From: Escherichia phage 132
Strand: one strand, 5' to 3'
Length of the DNA stretch: 64,000 nucleotides
Sequence record: MZ417521
The stretch's first letter is position 1. Each line of letters starts with the position of its first letter. The notes below the pieces were generated by a model. That model ran no database searches and had not been told where the DNA came from. It was given only the letters and a program-made list of their open reading frames with translations. Position numbers and translations under genes: made by a program. This document shows positions 6,740 through 20,981 of this stretch, in pieces.

Positions 6740-7176
6740 TAGCTTACACGAACATTAATCACTGCGCTACGAGGAACTACAGAGTATTCTCCAGCATGAA
6801 CTACGTTCAGAAGTTCAACACCATCTTCAATCCACTGATCAGTCACCCATCCACCCACAGGATTCGCGAATGGACGACGAATATAAACTGCCTTACACAG
6901 CAGATCAGTTGGATCTTCAGGTTTTTCAATTTCTGTCAATAGACTAAAATCTTTTTCATAAATAATAAGCGGTGATACCATTCCATAATAGTTTCTAATT
7001 TCAATATACATCATACCGATAAGAATTCCGCTATTAACACTAATAACAGTAAAAGGATATCCGCCAGTTAAACCAAGAAGTTCACAAAACTTATTATGAG
7101 CTGTATTAGACAGTACCGAAAAATTCTTAATTTCATCAAATTTTTTCAATTGATAAACAGCATTATTTTTAATCAT
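6739..7176 (-). CDS. hypothetical protein, 145 aa (paralog of 6174-6665)
   Basis: ATG ORF; shares VTDQWIEDGVELLNVVHAGEYSVVPRS block with the adjacent gene. Confidence 0.55.
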   Translation of the reverse strand: MIKNNAVYQLKKFDEIKNFSVLSNTAHNKFCELLGLTGGYPFTVISVNSGILIGMMYIEIRNYYGMVSPLIIYEKDFSLLTEIEKPEDPTDLLCKAVYIRRPFANPVGGWVTDQWIEDGVELLNVVHAGEYSVVPRSAVINVRVS

Positions 7177-15096: not shown

Positions 15097-15342
15097 TTAA
15101 CCACCAGTTACTTTCCACAAATCTTCGTTTGCGGCAATCCATTCAGTACGTTGATTTTCTTCATATACAGTAGTATATGCTGCTTTTTCTGAAGGGAATG
15201 TCTGGTAATGAGCGCCAGAAATTTTGTGAACGTCAGAATAAAGAGGGAAAGCTACAGAAATTTCCTTTCCTTCAATTTTCTTATTTCCATCTAATTTCTG
15301 CTCAAACGTTTTGATATTAACATAACCGCGAGTACTAGCCAT
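15097..15342 (-). CDS. soc: small outer capsid protein Soc
   Basis: 81-codon ORF matching recalled T4 Soc (MASTRGYVNIKTFEQKLDGNKKIEGKEISVAF...); late promoter upstream. Confidence 0.85.
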   Translation of the reverse strand: MASTRGYVNIKTFEQKLDGNKKIEGKEISVAFPLYSDVHKISGAHYQTFPSEKAAYTTVYEENQRTEWIAANEDLWKVTGG

Positions 15343-15372
15343 GTAATTCTCCTTTTATTTAAATTACATGAT

Positions 15373-15380
15373 TATTTATA
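15373..15380 (-). promoter_or_regulatory. T4 late promoter core TATAAATA upstream of soc
   Basis: plus-strand tatttata at 15373-15380, exact match to the gp55-dependent late promoter consensus. Confidence 0.6.
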
Positions 15381-15425
15381 ATAAATTCTCGCGGCTTTTA
15401 AGTCGTCGTTTAAATAAACGAGCTA

Positions 15426-15944
15426 TTAATAACCTCGGTCTTGACGAGCGAAGTTTTCAGCATTCTTCAGATAATAAAGTTTAAAGATTTCTTCAGCAGT
15501 AAGGCCGAGACCTTGGAACATGTTCAGAACGAAATGAAGAATATCAATCATTTCGAATTTAATTTCCAACTGGTCTTGTGGAGACAAATCAGTAATCAGA
15601 GTTTCACGACGTTCACCATGCTGCGACTTCCAAGGCTTCCATACAGCAGATGCATCTTTTTCGCCATTGCTCATACCACCAAGAGATGTCAGAAGTTCAC
15701 GGAATTCATCGTCAATATAATCTTTCTGATTACGCAGCCAATCGACAACTTCACCTGCAGTAGCCAAATCATCAGGATGACGGTTATATTCAGGTTTATC
15801 TTTAGCTAAACGAACCTGCAAAGATTTCTGCATATCAAGCATAACTTGCAGTGGGTCTTTTTCGTCACCGAGAATATCCCAGTATTCATTTTGAGCTTTA
15901 TCAGCGCCTTCGATCAGTTGCGAACATTCATTAAAGTAAGCCAT
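15426..15944 (-). CDS. 56: dCTP pyrophosphatase (dCTPase/dUTPase, MazG-like), 172 aa
   Basis: track ORF has a 31-codon upstream extension; ATG at 15942-15944 preceded by AGGA gives the T4 gp56 length. Confidence 0.8.
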   Translation of the reverse strand: MAYFNECSQLIEGADKAQNEYWDILGDEKDPLQVMLDMQKSLQVRLAKDKPEYNRHPDDLATAGEVVDWLRNQKDYIDDEFRELLTSLGGMSNGEKDASAVWKPWKSQHGERRETLITDLSPQDQLEIKFEMIDILHFVLNMFQGLGLTAEEIFKLYYLKNAENFARQDRGY

Positions 15945-16015
15945 TATTTTTCCTTTCAATTCATGGGTTAGTAGATTAATTATACAATAAATATATAAAG
16001 CAATAAGGAGGACAT

Positions 16016-16216
16016 ATGGTACAAAAATTAATGGCACTTGTTAATGCCATAAAAGGTAATAAAAAACGTATAGCTTTTACTATTTCTGCTATGATAGGAA
16101 TTTTACTCTGGAATTTTGTTTTATCACCAATTGCTATTGCTCATGGCGTTAATATTCCAGTAATTACTCTCGATACATTCGTAGATTTAGCATTTGCTTT
16201 GGTTGGGTTAATTTAA
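16016..16216 (+). CDS. small hydrophobic protein (two predicted TM helices), 66 aa; only plausible plus-strand gene
   Basis: ATG at 16016 preceded by AAGGAGG (16005-16011); sits in the 56-61 gap; stop overlaps the gene 61 stop. Confidence 0.4.
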   Translation: MVQKLMALVNAIKGNKKRIAFTISAMIGILLWNFVLSPIAIAHGVNIPVITLDTFVDLAFALVGLI

Positions 16217-17241
16217 ATCTTAGCATATTTAGATAGCCGCATTTTAGCCATCAACCCTTGGGCAATATTATTTTTCATATATTCCATAATTTGTTCAGGG
16301 GTTGCACCTTCCTTTCTAATCATATCATTAACATCTTTTGATTTCCAGGGAGATTTGTCCCAAAACATAACCCTTTCTCCTGCATCAACCAATTTAGTCA
16401 TTCGTTTAATAGTGTCAGGATGACGAGGTTCATTATCTAAAACCCATACACGTCTATCTTTAAATGGAACAATTTCTAGGTCTAATTGACCACCCGTAAT
16501 AGCTATACCGTTTTCAATAAAAAGTGAATCTATAGGTCCTTCTAGAACATATACATCACCATCTTTAACCCGTTCAACTCCATAGATTTTTGTTGCCTCA
16601 GGATAAGCTTTGATGGTGATATATTTTTGAGGAGCATCTTTCTTTAATGCACGTCCTTGAAAAGACTCAGCTTTTCCATTAGCATTATAAATTGGAATAA
16701 CAAGACGAGGCTCAGATATTTCCTTTTTATATGTTCCCGGTGCTATACTATTAACTAATTTAGGCCATTCGGTTGTAAACCAAAGATATTTCCATTTATC
16801 CTTTGGAATACAGCGAGCTTTTACGTATTTTATAATTGGATGGTCTTCCGCCAGTTTATCTAATCTAATACATGACGGAAGAGATTTAATTATTTTCTTC
16901 TCAGGTTGTTTAGAAAGTTCTTTAGGTTTTTCTACTGGACGACTTTTACCTTTTTCTTTTCTTATTTCAAAGATATATTCACGATATAAATCAGGTTCAA
17001 ACTCCTTTAAATATATTCCGATTGGTGCATGATAGTTACAGTTATAACAATGAATATTTCCTTCATTATTATCACCATAATACCATCCACGGGCTTTATT
17101 TTGGTCGGTTTTTGAATCTCCACAAACAGGGCATCTAAACCGCAATTTAAAAGTTGAACTATTATTTACTTGTGTGAATTTAGGTAAATGAGCTAATGCA
17201 CGATATGCAAACTCATTATCAATCCAAGGTATTGATGACAT
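16213..17241 (-). CDS. 61: DNA primase gp61, 342 aa
   Basis: N-terminal zinc ribbon (CPVCGDS...CYNC); same length as T4 gp61; adjacent to the helicase 41 region. Confidence 0.88.
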   Translation of the reverse strand: MSSIPWIDNEFAYRALAHLPKFTQVNNSSTFKLRFRCPVCGDSKTDQNKARGWYYGDNNEGNIHCYNCNYHAPIGIYLKEFEPDLYREYIFEIRKEKGKSRPVEKPKELSKQPEKKIIKSLPSCIRLDKLAEDHPIIKYVKARCIPKDKWKYLWFTTEWPKLVNSIAPGTYKKEISEPRLVIPIYNANGKAESFQGRALKKDAPQKYITIKAYPEATKIYGVERVKDGDVYVLEGPIDSLFIENGIAITGGQLDLEIVPFKDRRVWVLDNEPRHPDTIKRMTKLVDAGERVMFWDKSPWKSKDVNDMIRKEGATPEQIMEYMKNNIAQGLMAKMRLSKYAKI

Positions 17242-17243
17242 TT

Positions 17244-17408
17244 TTACTCTTCTTTTTCTTTAGATTCCTCTTTTTTCTTTTTAGGAATCTGTTCAGGACC
17301 TTTATTTACTACAGCGCCTGACGTTGTTCCAGTAGAGATATTTTCAGGATTACCACCTGAATCTCCAGCGACCATATCTTCTTTAATAAATTCTTTATAT
17401 GTTTTCAT
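17244..17408 (-). CDS. small protein with internal-protein-like N-terminus (MKTYKEFIKED...), 54 aa; below the ORF-track cutoff
   Basis: ATG at 17406-17408 preceded by AGAGGT; first 9 residues match the capsid-targeting sequence of T4 internal proteins; hand-translated. Confidence 0.4.
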   Translation of the reverse strand: MKTYKEFIKEDMVAGDSGGNPENISTGTTSGAVVNKGPEQIPKKKKEESKEKEE

Positions 17409-17409
17409 A

Positions 17410-18036
17410 TTAACCTCTATTCATAAAAGCATTAAAAATTTGATCGTCAATAGAAACTTTTACTTTAGACTGTTTTTCTGATGGCAATTCATATCCGCAT
17501 ATTACAATTTTGTGATCAATATCAAAATACACAGAAGCAATATGATTAATGATGTTTTCAGTAAAGTCTAAATCAACATCAATATCTTTTTGACCACAAC
17601 CTAAAGGATAAATAATGCGAGTAATTCGATTATCTTTAACAAAGATTCCACCGACATACTCTGTGCTGCGTTTAAAGTCTACACGCCGACGAAATGAAAA
17701 ATATTCAGGCTCTTTATGAGCTCGGCTCATAGGACACAACGAGTAACTAGAGTAAGAGATGTCAAATCCTACGCCTTCGATATGAGCCAAAGTGTCATGA
17801 TTAAACCAATTATAATCGTACGCCAAGTCCATTAGATTATAATATGTAAAAGGCACCGGATTAACATCACTAGTCACAAGCATATAATTAGCAACTGCTA
17901 TAATTTCGTTGTTTTTAACGAATACAAACCGTGATTGATGCGAATGACCTGGACCCGCGTTTTCACGATTAATGATATAACACTGGGCACCTTTATATTT
18001 GTACGTGTCTTTGCACTTGTGCATTTGATAAAGCAT
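17410..18036 (-). CDS. hypothetical protein, 208 aa
   Basis: ATG ORF between sp and gene 61. Confidence 0.5.
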   Translation of the reverse strand: MLYQMHKCKDTYKYKGAQCYIINRENAGPGHSHQSRFVFVKNNEIIAVANYMLVTSDVNPVPFTYYNLMDLAYDYNWFNHDTLAHIEGVGFDISYSSYSLCPMSRAHKEPEYFSFRRRVDFKRSTEYVGGIFVKDNRITRIIYPLGCGQKDIDVDLDFTENIINHIASVYFDIDHKIVICGYELPSEKQSKVKVSIDDQIFNAFMNRG

Positions 18037-18329
18037 TATTCACCTACCACTTCAGCGATGATATTTTTATTATTGAAGTTTTTATCACAATACAGAACGT
18101 AATTATACTGCATTACACCACCAGACTTAAGCTGTTTTTGTACTTCAACTTTCATTTCAGGGCGATCACGCTCAACGATATTCATAATATCTGCTTCAAT
18201 CTGAGTTTCAACCTCAGTCTGATCTGCAGTCATAGACCATTCGCACAAATCTTTATCATAACCTGCCATAGCAGGCTGAGCAGCACAAGAAGCTAAAGCA
18301 AAAATTGCAGCAAAAACAAATTTTTTCAT
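18036..18329 (-). CDS. sp: secreted protein, probable spackle (Sp), 97 aa
   Basis: cleavable signal peptide (MKKFVFAAIFALASCAAQPAMA); T4 Sp length; sits in the 61-41 interval. Confidence 0.55.
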   Translation of the reverse strand: MKKFVFAAIFALASCAAQPAMAGYDKDLCEWSMTADQTEVETQIEADIMNIVERDRPEMKVEVQKQLKSGGVMQYNYVLYCDKNFNNKNIIAEVVGE

Positions 18330-18357
18330 GATAATCTCCTCAGTAGTTTATGTTTAT

Positions 18358-18387
18358 ATAGTATCTCAATTTCTAACAAAAGTAAAC
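18358..18387 (-). promoter_or_regulatory. T4-type early promoter (-10 TACTAT)
   Basis: gtaaac 18382-18387, atagta 18358-18363 on plus strand. Confidence 0.5.
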
Positions 18388-18641
18388 TATTTTATTTCCT
18401 CAAGTTCATTAATCAATAAAAGTTCTCTGACGCTAAAAACAAAGAAAAATGTGTTCCCATCAACCAGAGCATGACCGCTAATAGAACACCCTCTGCGGAA
18501 TTTAGAAACTTCACAATCTAGAACTGTAAAGGGTTTTAATCCTATGACTTTAGCTGTGCGTCTATTCAGTTCACAACCACTTGCGAATTTTTCCAAATCT
18601 TCTTCTGATTTAAACTGATATTCTCTATTAACTAGCATCAT
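18387..18641 (-). CDS. small hypothetical protein, 84 aa
   Basis: ATG ORF. Confidence 0.45.
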   Translation of the reverse strand: MMLVNREYQFKSEEDLEKFASGCELNRRTAKVIGLKPFTVLDCEVSKFRRGCSISGHALVDGNTFFFVFSVRELLLINELEEIK

Positions 18642-18672
18642 TTTCTTTTCTCCGCGATTAGCTGATAGAATT

Positions 18673-18702
18673 ACTATAACACAACTCTATCAGCTTGTAA
18701 AC
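18673..18702 (-). promoter_or_regulatory. T4-type early promoter (-10 TATAGT)
   Basis: gtaaac 18697-18702, actata 18673-18678 on plus strand. Confidence 0.45.
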
Positions 18703-18704
18703 TA

Positions 18705-18947
18705 CTATTTTACTAGCATCAATAACTGTTTCTCTAACTTGACGATTTTACGAAAGTATCTTTTGCATTGACGAATCTGTCGCTTCGTAGGGCGCACAGC
18801 AAACTTAATAAATTCCACTCGACCAAATGGAGGGCTTTCTTCTGCTGGAATATCTAACACCAATTCCCACGTATCTGCAACAAGTGCTTTGAATTGAGTA
18901 TTTTTCCTAACATTATACGGAGTAGGTTTAAATAAAACCGTATGCAT
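18705..18947 (-). CDS. small hypothetical protein, about 80 aa
   Basis: track start is TTG; ATG at 18945-18947 preceded by GAGGG. Confidence 0.4.
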   Translation of the reverse strand: MHTVLFKPTPYNVRKNTQFKALVADTWELVLDIPAEESPPFGRVEFIKFAVRPTKRQIRQCKRYFRKIVKLEKQLLMLVK

Positions 18948-18948
18948 A

Positions 18949-19140
18949 TTACCCTCGCCAATCAGATTCAAAAACTTTTTTATCATTAACAAATGCTTTA
19001 ACTAAAGCTTTATTAACTTCAGCAAGTTGTGAAGTGACCCATAGAATTTGATCTTTATCAGACACATCCATAGTGATTTCTTTGGTAAACATATTACCAT
19101 TTTCAAACCAGCCAATAAAAACAATCTTTGCTAATTCCAT
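18949..19140 (-). CDS. small protein, 63 aa, at the position of T4 dmd
   Basis: ATG ORF immediately downstream of gene 41; sequence not recognised, assignment positional. Confidence 0.45.
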   Translation of the reverse strand: MELAKIVFIGWFENGNMFTKEITMDVSDKDQILWVTSQLAEVNKALVKAFVNDKKVFESDWRG

Positions 19141-19170
19141 AATAATTTCCCCAATTTAACCAACAAGACT

Positions 19171-19200
19171 ACTATACCATAGTCTTGTCAGATTGTAAAC
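19171..19200 (-). promoter_or_regulatory. T4-type early promoter (-10 TATAGT) overlapping an 8-bp inverted repeat
   Basis: gtaaac 19195-19200, actata 19171-19176; flanking caagacta/tagtcttg inverted repeat. Confidence 0.45.
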
Positions 19201-20627
19201 TAAAATTTTAATTCGTTTGCTAAAGCATCTAACTGGGCTCGAGTAGATTCATTTCTTTGATAGCGATTCTGCTCAGCTTGTATCTGTTGTGAACCTGCTA
19301 CTTCGTTCACTTCAGTTGGAGTAGAATCTTGTTCAATTTCTACCCATTTCTGATTTCCTTTTTGAACACCCATCAAAAACTTATTCCATTTATTCTTATC
19401 ACCATATCGTGATTTGATTTGCTTAATTAGTTGTTGTTCAGCAGCTGCTAACTCCTCGGTTTCAATGACCGCAAGCATAAAATCAGCTGTTGCTGGAAGA
19501 CCAGCAGATTCTGCAATATCACTCATGTTAACATCAGAAGAATCCCAAGCTTGTTTACCAACCTGCGCTGCAGTCCAAAGAACAGTTTCGGTTTCAACAG
19601 CCAGAGCACGCAATTCCTCTGCGATAGCTTTAACAGTTGTGTAACTATTTTCTGAATAAACTCTGATGCGGCAAGATTTACAAATACCTAGATAGTCAAC
19701 AATAATGATTGTTGGAACAAAATTTTTCTTGAGCTTTAATTCATTTAAAAGGGATCGAAATGTATTAGCGTCTGCTCCACCAGTAGGATACTGTTTAACG
19801 ATTAAACGCCCAAGAGTAGATTTCTCACGCCATTTTTCCATTTTTCCTTTATACTCAGCGTAAGAAATATGCCCATCATCAATGTCATCAAGAGAAACAT
19901 CAAGCATATTAGCGTCAATACGTTTAGCACAGACTTCTTCTGCCATTTCCATGGAAATGTAAAGAACATTATGTCCGAGCTGTAAATAATCTGCTGCTAA
20001 TGAACACAGACCTAATGACTTACCAACGTTAACGCCAGCCATTAAAACGTTCAGTGTTCCAGTTTCAGCTCCACCTTTCGTAATTTTGTTTAGAATTCTG
20101 AGTTTAAATGGAACTTTACGAGCTTTATTCATATAAGATAGCCAACGTGCTTCGTAGTCATCCATCCAATCATGACCAACGTAACTATCAAATGAAATTG
20201 ATAATGCTTGGCGCATGATGTCAGGAATAGCACCAACATCCGGCATTTTCTTATTTCGTTTTTCCGGAGGAAGCTCAGCATTAGTTTGAATTTCGATTAT
20301 TTTAGACGTAGCATTAAACATCGCTCTTTGCTGAACATATTTTTCTGTTTCTTTTATTAACCAACTGTGGTCTTCCGGAGAATCAGCTAGTTTTGAAATA
20401 AGTGTTTTTACACCAGAATATTCTGTTTCAGTAAATGAACTATTTTCTAATGCAACATTTAACGCATTAATAGATGGAACGCTATGATACTCATTGACAT
20501 GAGATTTAATTAATTTGAATGTATTTTTAGCTGGACCACTTTCAAAATATTCTGAATCCATATATGGCCAAACTTTTGAAAAATAAGCTTGATCAAATAT
20601 GAGATGAGAAAGAATAATTTCTACCAC
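19200..20627 (-). CDS. 41: replicative DNA helicase gp41 (DnaB-like), 475 aa
   Basis: matches recalled T4 gp41 (MVEIILSHLIFDQAYF...); Walker A GVNVGKS; GTG start at 20625-20627 with AGGAG 5 nt upstream. Confidence 0.9.
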   Translation of the reverse strand: MVEIILSHLIFDQAYFSKVWPYMDSEYFESGPAKNTFKLIKSHVNEYHSVPSINALNVALENSSFTETEYSGVKTLISKLADSPEDHSWLIKETEKYVQQRAMFNATSKIIEIQTNAELPPEKRNKKMPDVGAIPDIMRQALSISFDSYVGHDWMDDYEARWLSYMNKARKVPFKLRILNKITKGGAETGTLNVLMAGVNVGKSLGLCSLAADYLQLGHNVLYISMEMAEEVCAKRIDANMLDVSLDDIDDGHISYAEYKGKMEKWREKSTLGRLIVKQYPTGGADANTFRSLLNELKLKKNFVPTIIIVDYLGICKSCRIRVYSENSYTTVKAIAEELRALAVETETVLWTAAQVGKQAWDSSDVNMSDIAESAGLPATADFMLAVIETEELAAAEQQLIKQIKSRYGDKNKWNKFLMGVQKGNQKWVEIEQDSTPTEVNEVAGSQQIQAEQNRYQRNESTRAQLDALANELKF

Positions 20628-20636
20628 ACTTACTCC

Positions 20637-20981
20637 TTAAAAGAATTTAAATTTTTTCTTTGACCTTTTATTAAATGCATCTTGCAGTTGCATTGTAATA
20701 CATTTTTCTACATGAGGAGCTAACTCAGCTTTTCTTTCTTGGTCAAGAACAGCAAAGTCCATTACAACCTTTCCATCAACCCAATCCAGTTTAGTTACAT
20801 ACACTATATGTGTAGAACCATCTTCTAGTTTAATGACAATCTCCTGGATAACATTTTCCATAGCTGATTTAATTATCTTAAGAGATTCATTAAAAAGACG
20901 TTCTTTTCTTTCTTCTTCCCCCTCCGAAGAGGGGGATTCATCGATAATTTCTAGATCTAAATCTAAATCATCTTTATTCAT
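20637..20981 (-). CDS. hypothetical protein at the gene 40 position, about 114 aa
   Basis: track start is GTG; ATG at 20979-20981; contains the 20918-20935 GC hairpin in its coding sequence. Confidence 0.45.
   Translation of the reverse strand: MNKDDLDLDLEIIDESPSSEGEEERKERLFNESLKIIKSAMENVIQEIVIKLEDGSTHIVYVTKLDWVDGKVVMDFAVLDQERKAELAPHVEKCITMQLQDAFNKRSKKKFKFF

Follow-up and report, generated by a model that had tools for sequence, protein, structure and literature searches.

The window (the whole stretch of DNA analysed here, 64 kb in length) belongs to a T4-like phage of the genus Tequatrovirus, a distinct mosaic which over the whole window is about 96% identical to the best-matching genomes, phage ECO4 among them; at the locus considered here ECO4 is the best match, with 99.9% identity. 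Genes 56 and 61, both encoded on the minus strand, are separated by an interval (15945-16212) containing a single open reading frame (ORF), on the plus strand. The features of this junction are listed below.

15426-15944, minus strand: gene 56 (dCTPase/dUTPase), 172 aa; phrog_173, E=1.5e-46, and Pfam dUTPase_2; 73% amino acid identity with T4 gp56.
15979-16003, minus strand: predicted MotA-type middle promoter of gene 56, with MotA box TTGCTTTA (16003-15996), an 11-nt spacer and the -10 element TATAAT (15984-15979).
15986-15993, plus strand: predicted gp55 late promoter AATAAATA, matching TATAAATA at 7 of 8 positions, inside the spacer of the opposite-strand middle promoter.
16004-16005, no strand: cargo slot, at the junction AAGCAAT/AAGGAGG, where the window-to-T4 and window-to-T2 homology blocks break; also from the annotation of phage LH2.
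16004-16011, plus strand: Shine-Dalgarno sequence TAAGGAGG, 4 nt ahead of the ORF ATG.
16016-16216, plus strand: gene for a small membrane protein of 66 aa, as predicted from hydropathy and an AlphaFold2 model; phrog_2024, E=8e-31; dN/dS 0.07-0.3.
16021-16050, minus strand: weak terminator-like hairpin with U-tract on the gene 61 strand, within ORF codons 6-12; folding energy -8.9 kcal/mol (z=-2.4) for the window and T4 alike.
16213-17241, minus strand: gene 61, DNA primase, 342 aa; phrog_47, E=9e-107; 98.5% identity with T4 gp61.

In the preliminary description of this DNA the distance between genes 56 and 61 had been put at about 270 bp, and it measures 268 bp; the 66-aa hydrophobic plus-strand ORF, preceded by an AAGGAGG ribosome-binding site and converging on gene 61, is likewise confirmed, with two hydrophobic segments in its product. 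The stop codons of the ORF (16214-16216) and of gene 61 (16213-16215) overlap inside the four nucleotides TTAA, while the true start of gene 56 is the ATG at 15944, the ORF list having given an upstream GTG. The further claim that this is the lone plus-strand gene of the window agrees with the annotation of ECO4, in which the 66-aa ORF is the sole plus-strand coding sequence of the equivalent stretch and its product, gp056, is 100% identical to the window protein.

In the T4 reference (NC_000866) gene 56 (16270-16785) is followed by dam (16846-17625), by an unannotated gap of 310 bp and by gene 61 (17935-18963); the position given for oriA, 16763, falls within the 5' end of gene 56. The T4 map given in the preliminary description was thus right in placing dam between genes 56 and 61 and mistaken in placing gene 69 there; in the T4 sequence X01416 (1984) the name "gene 69" (Macdonald and Mosig) designates the long reading frame downstream of the promoter P(M)16.53, on the soc side of this promoter, a frame that corresponds to what are today gene 56 and segF. 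Dam, an N6-adenine methyltransferase of the MethyltransfD12 type, was sought both as homology to T4 Dam and as a catalytic DPPY-type motif IV within an ORF. A tblastn search of the 64-kb window with T4 Dam gives a best E value of 5, with no homolog, and those of the window's reading frames that reach 100 codons contain no [DNS]PP[YFW] motif, so that the claimed absence of a Dam-like protein with a DPPY motif from the window is borne out by both approaches; the same tblastn search of the whole ECO4 record (168.6 kb) gives a best E value of 1.8, again with no homolog.

When the locus is compared with those of T4, T2 and T6, as had been suggested at the outset, T4 and T2 are seen to carry both dam and the small ORF, and T6 to be compact and dam-less. 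The layout of the window (gene 56, a bidirectional promoter region of about 70 bp, then the plus-strand ORF of 66 aa, overlapping gene 61 by 4 nt) is shared by T6, RB32, ECO4 and most other Tequatrovirus phages, and the compact junction is also found in the Mosigvirus phages ST0 and RB69, in the Gelderlandvirus Melville and in the Kanagawavirus CIP9. By tblastn, the 66-aa protein is recovered in 692 phage records, about 500 of them at 90% identity or more (Tequatrovirus), and T4-type Dam at the same level of identity in about 182; since these figures, both of which contain RefSeq/GenBank duplicates, stand at about 500 against about 182, roughly two thirds of the Tequatrovirus genomes would be without dam. 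The compact junction is not unusual: it is the majority state in Tequatrovirus, T6 included, and recurs in RB69 and in five other genera, and the dam-less arrangement is already known and is the commonest one, so that the missing dam is unremarkable.

Alignment of the window with T4 and with T2 breaks exactly between the MotA box of gene 56 (ending in AAGCAAT) and the ribosome-binding site of the ORF (beginning with AAGGAGG). At this point T4 has dam (780 bp) plus about 110 bp, and both T4 and T2 carry a dam cassette of about 880 bp; in T2 dam is accompanied by an ORF of 181 aa belonging to phrog_8706 (locus L003, 1865-2410), and in phage LH2 the position is taken by an HNH homing endonuclease (locus L033, 847-1497). 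By annotation, HNH homing endonucleases occupy the slot also in phages WL-3, RPN226 and GRNsp7. As judged from these alignments, the 56-61 interval is a cargo slot, of which the window phage has the empty version. The empty form being common to several genera, parsimony favours a gain of dam by insertion in the T4/T2 lineage over its loss elsewhere; since no cargo is present here, phage-directed GATC methylation should be lacking, unless a methylase is encoded outside the window. That the small ORF might be a substitute for dam is ruled out by T4 and T2, which have both. The main outcome of the comparison is a correction of the map: T4-like coliphages normally have the 56-61 junction without dam, and dam, the HNH endonuclease and another ORF are optional cargo of one precise slot. 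The soc-side flank of gene 56 is a second variable slot: soc lies only 83 nt after gene 56 in the window (15097-15944); segF, which T4 has, is absent beside gene 56, only remote GIY-YIG paralogs being found in the window, near 40.5 and 50.8 kb; and the soc.1/soc.2 ORFs that T2, RB32-like phages and T6 have beside gene 56 are missing as well.

The same ORF is present in T4 itself, at 17738-17938 on the plus strand, inside the 310-bp gap between dam and gene 61; 61 of its 66 residues are identical to those of the window protein, the five differences being all conservative, and it has the same Shine-Dalgarno sequence, the heptamer ATAAATA 21 nt upstream of its ATG and the same overlap with gene 61. 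T2 also has the 66-aa ORF. In NC_000866 it is unannotated, as it is in X01416, where it lies on the reverse strand from position 595 down to 395; the exact T4 protein, sought in a collection of 15 billion proteins, occurs only in assemblies of raw reads and has no NCBI or UniRef accession. In relatives the gene is annotated as encoding a hypothetical protein (RB32ORF030w, RB69ORF029w), and a literature search found no description of it. In the T6 record AP018814 the ATG is replaced by ATT (locus L004, 2501-2503), the annotated coding sequence beginning at Met6, which suggests that the full-length protein may be dispensable in culture; the ATT may represent a knock-down in a laboratory strain or a rare start codon, or else the first five residues may be dispensable.

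The ORF belongs to an already catalogued hypothetical family, phrog_2024, whose profile is matched over all of its 65 positions by ORF residues 2-66 (E=8.2e-31); distant members of the family likewise map to it. A profile search of 1.84 billion cluster representatives returned 16 clusters only, and the family is accordingly narrow. Two types can be told apart: type A is that of Tequatrovirus and Mosigvirus and of the leading gene in the Gaprivervirus tandem, whose other gene is of type B, the type found also in Klebsiella T4-like phages; more divergent members are known from Jiaodavirus, Gelderlandvirus, Kanagawavirus and Moonvirus. RB69ORF029w (Mosigvirus) and the type-B paralogs share with the window ORF the phrog_2024 assignment, the position and orientation next to the primase gene and the upstream heptamer, while identity to the window ORF is 48-54% for type A and about 20% for type B. 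The Gaprivervirus genes follow one another, A then B, at a distance of 9 nt (2495-2692 and 2701-2901 in VR25, locus L006; also in loci L020, L021 and L029); ATAAATA precedes the first gene only, and the 4-nt overlap with gene 61 is kept by the second.

Within groups the pairwise dN/dS is 0.07-0.3, and between genera synonymous sites are saturated while the protein can still be aligned; W32, N33, P38 and G44 are invariant, P48 and G64 nearly so. This constraint, together with conservation across at least seven genera, places the ORF beyond chance, and on the pattern of substitutions it is a real gene under purifying selection. It might be objected that the ORF is not a gene, and that what is conserved belongs to the other strand, namely to the 3' untranslated region and terminator that follow gene 61 and to the 56/dam promoter region; the terminator-like hairpin of the gene 61 strand does lie within the ORF, and the T4 ORF has gone unannotated since 1984. 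The hairpin, however, is specific to Tequatrovirus, being absent in the Mosigvirus, Gaprivervirus and type-B loci, and therefore cannot account for the conservation of the ORF, of which it is ruled out as the cause. Moreover, frame, length (57-70 aa) and motifs (WN..P..A..G..P) are kept at 20-50% identity, dN/dS is far below 1 and a strong Shine-Dalgarno sequence precedes the start codon in all lineages examined, so that this objection is hardly credible.

The relation of the gene to its neighbour is equally constant. The ORF and gene 61 are convergent at each of the 27 loci examined, at gp61 identities going down to 60%, and 26 of these loci keep the 4-nt stop-stop overlap; at the remaining one, in the Jiaodavirus PKO111, 19 nt separate the two genes, and the GC-rich hairpin aaggggcttcggcccctt between them (locus L030, 1692-1711) looks like a bidirectional terminator. 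The conserved overlap, and the lack of any plus-strand terminator-like site in 16000-20700, would suit a role at the RNA level, in which a late convergent plus-strand transcript, antisense to gene 61, shuts down the primase mRNA, the peptide being secondary. Against this stand the strong purifying selection on the protein with saturated synonymous sites, not expected of a purely antisense role, the spacing and intervening hairpin in PKO111, and the fact that T4 late transcription is not known to require such control; an antisense function as the main one thus appears very unlikely.

The promoter arrangement was read from sequence. The predicted middle promoter of gene 56 conforms to the MotA pattern, (a/t)(a/t)TGCTT(t/c)A followed at about 12 bp by a TAnnnT -10 element, and aligns with T4 P(M)16.53, annotated in X01416 with the mot-box ATTGCTT and the -10 element TATAAT; on this alignment it is the equivalent of P(M)16.53, the oriA primer promoter. 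In T4 a MotA-dependent transcript has been tied to oriA priming, and in the same review of replication oriA is placed outside the regions of transcriptional divergence (PMC3016281). Should the late promoter on the plus strand prove real, then in dam-less phages the promoter of oriA type would coincide exactly with a local point of transcriptional divergence.

Late promoters (gp55/gp33/gp45-dependent) were recognised by the octamer TATAAATA at -13 to -6, with transcription expected to begin about 6 nt downstream of it, which puts the predicted late starts at about 15999 in the window and about 17722 in T4. The heptamer ATAAATA is found 16-22 nt upstream of the ATG in loci of the window/T6 type and of the T4/T2 type, in Mosigvirus, Gaprivervirus, type-B, Jiaodavirus and Kanagawavirus loci, with different flanks; the exception is Melville, which has only ATTAAATA. 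The octamer is perfect in three lineages (L019, L027 and CIP9), and in most lineages its first base is A, G or C instead of T; in the late promoters of T4's relatives conservation of the -13 T is low (Nolan 2006, PMC1524935). In the dam-less form the heptamer is contributed by the spacer of the middle promoter and in T4 and T2 by the right end of the dam cassette, two unrelated contexts from which an identical motif thus arises at an identical spacing from the ATG. Over the two strands of the 64-kb window the heptamer is depleted about five-fold (8 observed, against 40.7 +/- 7 expected), and the eight sites lie at 6958, 15373, 15987, 17608, 43062, 56696, 61006 and 62272. Half of them are found 22-30 nt before a Shine-Dalgarno sequence and ATG, namely those of soc, of the 66-aa ORF, of gene 49 (43062, minus strand) and of a 70-aa ORF (56696, minus strand); soc is a known late gene, its promoter P(L)15.32 being annotated in X01416. 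The plus-strand heptamer at 17608 is antisense inside a 61.2-like gene and has neither Shine-Dalgarno sequence nor ORF behind it.

As late genes lying in the early region of T4, soc and gene 49 resemble the small ORF in having an isolated heptamer at this distance amid early and middle transcription; they differ from it in sharing the strand of their early neighbours, whereas the 66-aa ORF is encoded on the strand opposite to its neighbours, in convergent orientation with gene 61. No sigma-70-like promoter was found on the plus strand between gene 56 and the ORF. The published HMM-based list of RB69 late promoters, which has nothing upstream of RB69ORF029w, counts against a late reading; on the motif evidence set out above, the ORF is nonetheless probably expressed late.

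The hydropathy profile of the protein shows a basic amphipathic N-terminus (residues 1-18, net charge +5) and two hydrophobic segments (19-42 and 49-66), connected by the loop HGVNIP, with D53 and D57 inside the second. AlphaFold2, run on an alignment of 45 sequences, gives a model of three helices (2-12, 16-42 and 52-63), its mean pLDDT being 83.7. One transmembrane segment, residues 21-41, has been predicted in RB69ORF029w (Nolan 2006, PMC1524935). A cytoplasmic N-terminus is to be expected from the positive-inside rule; from the model, the second helix would either span the membrane or re-enter it. Sequence searches of Pfam, NCBIfam, PADLOC and the PDB gave no match for the protein, so that any functional guess has to be drawn from its anatomy alone, and a fold search of BFVD returned family members only, one of which is named "Holin" by its submitter. 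As for toxins, a single member of the 45 matches a toxin family, Ldr_toxin, at E=0.1, which is noise; nor is the arrangement that of a type I toxin-antitoxin pair, the antisense strand being gene 61 read-through with no discrete sRNA gene evident.

Class II holins and pinholins, such as S68 of phage 21, are about 65-70 aa long, have two hydrophobic helices and are expressed late. The 66-aa protein is similar in size, in its two hydrophobic segments and in its predicted late promoter, and the Asn in the middle of the membrane and the acidic residues on one face of the C-terminal helix would suit oligomerisation; it could accordingly accumulate late in the inner membrane and there form pores in the manner of a holin or pinholin, or regulate a holin, and so tune the timing of lysis or lysis inhibition. 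To this may be added the "Holin" entry just mentioned, carried by one member in UniProt/BFVD, and the weak match of a distant member (P0117) to the holin family phrog_3427 (E=5e-4). The entry, however, is an unverified database name, and the weak match may come from hydrophobic composition; none of the 45 members matches a Pfam holin family, even at E<=10, and the second helix is modelled at only 12 residues. Unlike the genes of class II holins, moreover, this gene never adjoins an endolysin gene or lysis cassette, its neighbours being genes 56 and 61 in all T4-like loci; in ECO4 the homolog of the e-type lysozyme (gp151, annotated as "glycoside hydrolase family protein") is encoded about 48 kb away, and according to the same annotation the T holin, the antiholins RI and RIII and the spanins are already present. 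A holin-related function is for these reasons considered rather unlikely.

Outside the T4-like phages, remote members of phrog_2024 (E 5e-6 to 8e-5) were found in three other settings: 17 nt upstream of a 352-aa RelA/SpoT-domain gene (locus L034, 129-308); at the end of a prophage, after tail-fibre-like genes and beside host genes (locus L035, 4001-4213); and between a gene for a tail-tip protein/Endonuclease_7 and a serine recombinase (locus L036, 5001-5210). A search for a lysis cassette around them gave no convincing case. Positions at the ends of late operons or prophages are typical of exclusion or immunity genes of the cor, lom and llp types. The placement of the remote members after tail genes (L036, L035) or beside the RelA/SpoT-domain gene (L034) would thus be compatible with an envelope-directed accessory ("moron-like") protein, which would be made late and counter superinfection, the loss of progeny on cell debris or a membrane-based host defence. 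These contexts, however, are short and without functional annotation, and the matches that define them are in the range of E values given above; Imm and Sp, the exclusion proteins known from T4, are made early, and neither PADLOC nor any other family search gives a match, which makes this an unlikely reading of the gene.

The explanation that we prefer, and hold to be likely, is that the junction is the basic, dam-less form of a variable slot of T-even phages, flanked by the middle promoter of gene 56 and by a late-transcribed gene for an inner-membrane protein. The two flanks would be fixed, with the MotA promoter on the minus strand and the small conserved gene on the plus strand, and the optional cargo would enter between the MotA box and the ribosome-binding site of the small gene. 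Late in infection the gp55-type promoter AATAAATA would direct transcription from about 15999, and the mRNA would have a leader of 17 nt that includes a strong ribosome-binding site. The product would be an inner-membrane protein whose basic amphipathic N-terminus stays in the cytoplasm; a full transmembrane helix at about 19-42, in which W32, N33 and P38 are invariant, would be joined by a short loop to another hydrophobic helix, itself bearing a conserved acidic residue. In this scheme the anatomy of the junction, its distribution, the purifying selection and the occurrence of the gene in T4 are demonstrated here, and late timing, membrane topology and any function of the protein are what we infer; as to the last of these, the best guess is a role at the cell envelope late in infection, for instance in lysis timing, membrane permeability or exclusion.

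The broader proposition is that a late gene has been overlooked in T4 and in almost all enterobacterial T-even phages, a gene whose 66-aa inner-membrane product would act at the envelope or whose transcript would act antisense to gene 61, with divergent transcription at the oriA promoter in dam-less phages; here we consider the balance to be even. What the analysis adds is a gene which the T4 reference does not annotate, with a fixed convergent overlap on the primase gene and a conserved predicted late-promoter core. Because the annotation is missing from the reference, genome-wide screens and proteomics relying on it would miss the gene; that of the T4 gap, conserved across at least seven genera, is a cheap and well-defined target in a model phage. 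As regards annotation in general, the T2 and T6 records contain product names that are plainly wrong, such as "terminase", "ferredoxin" and "head morphogenesis".
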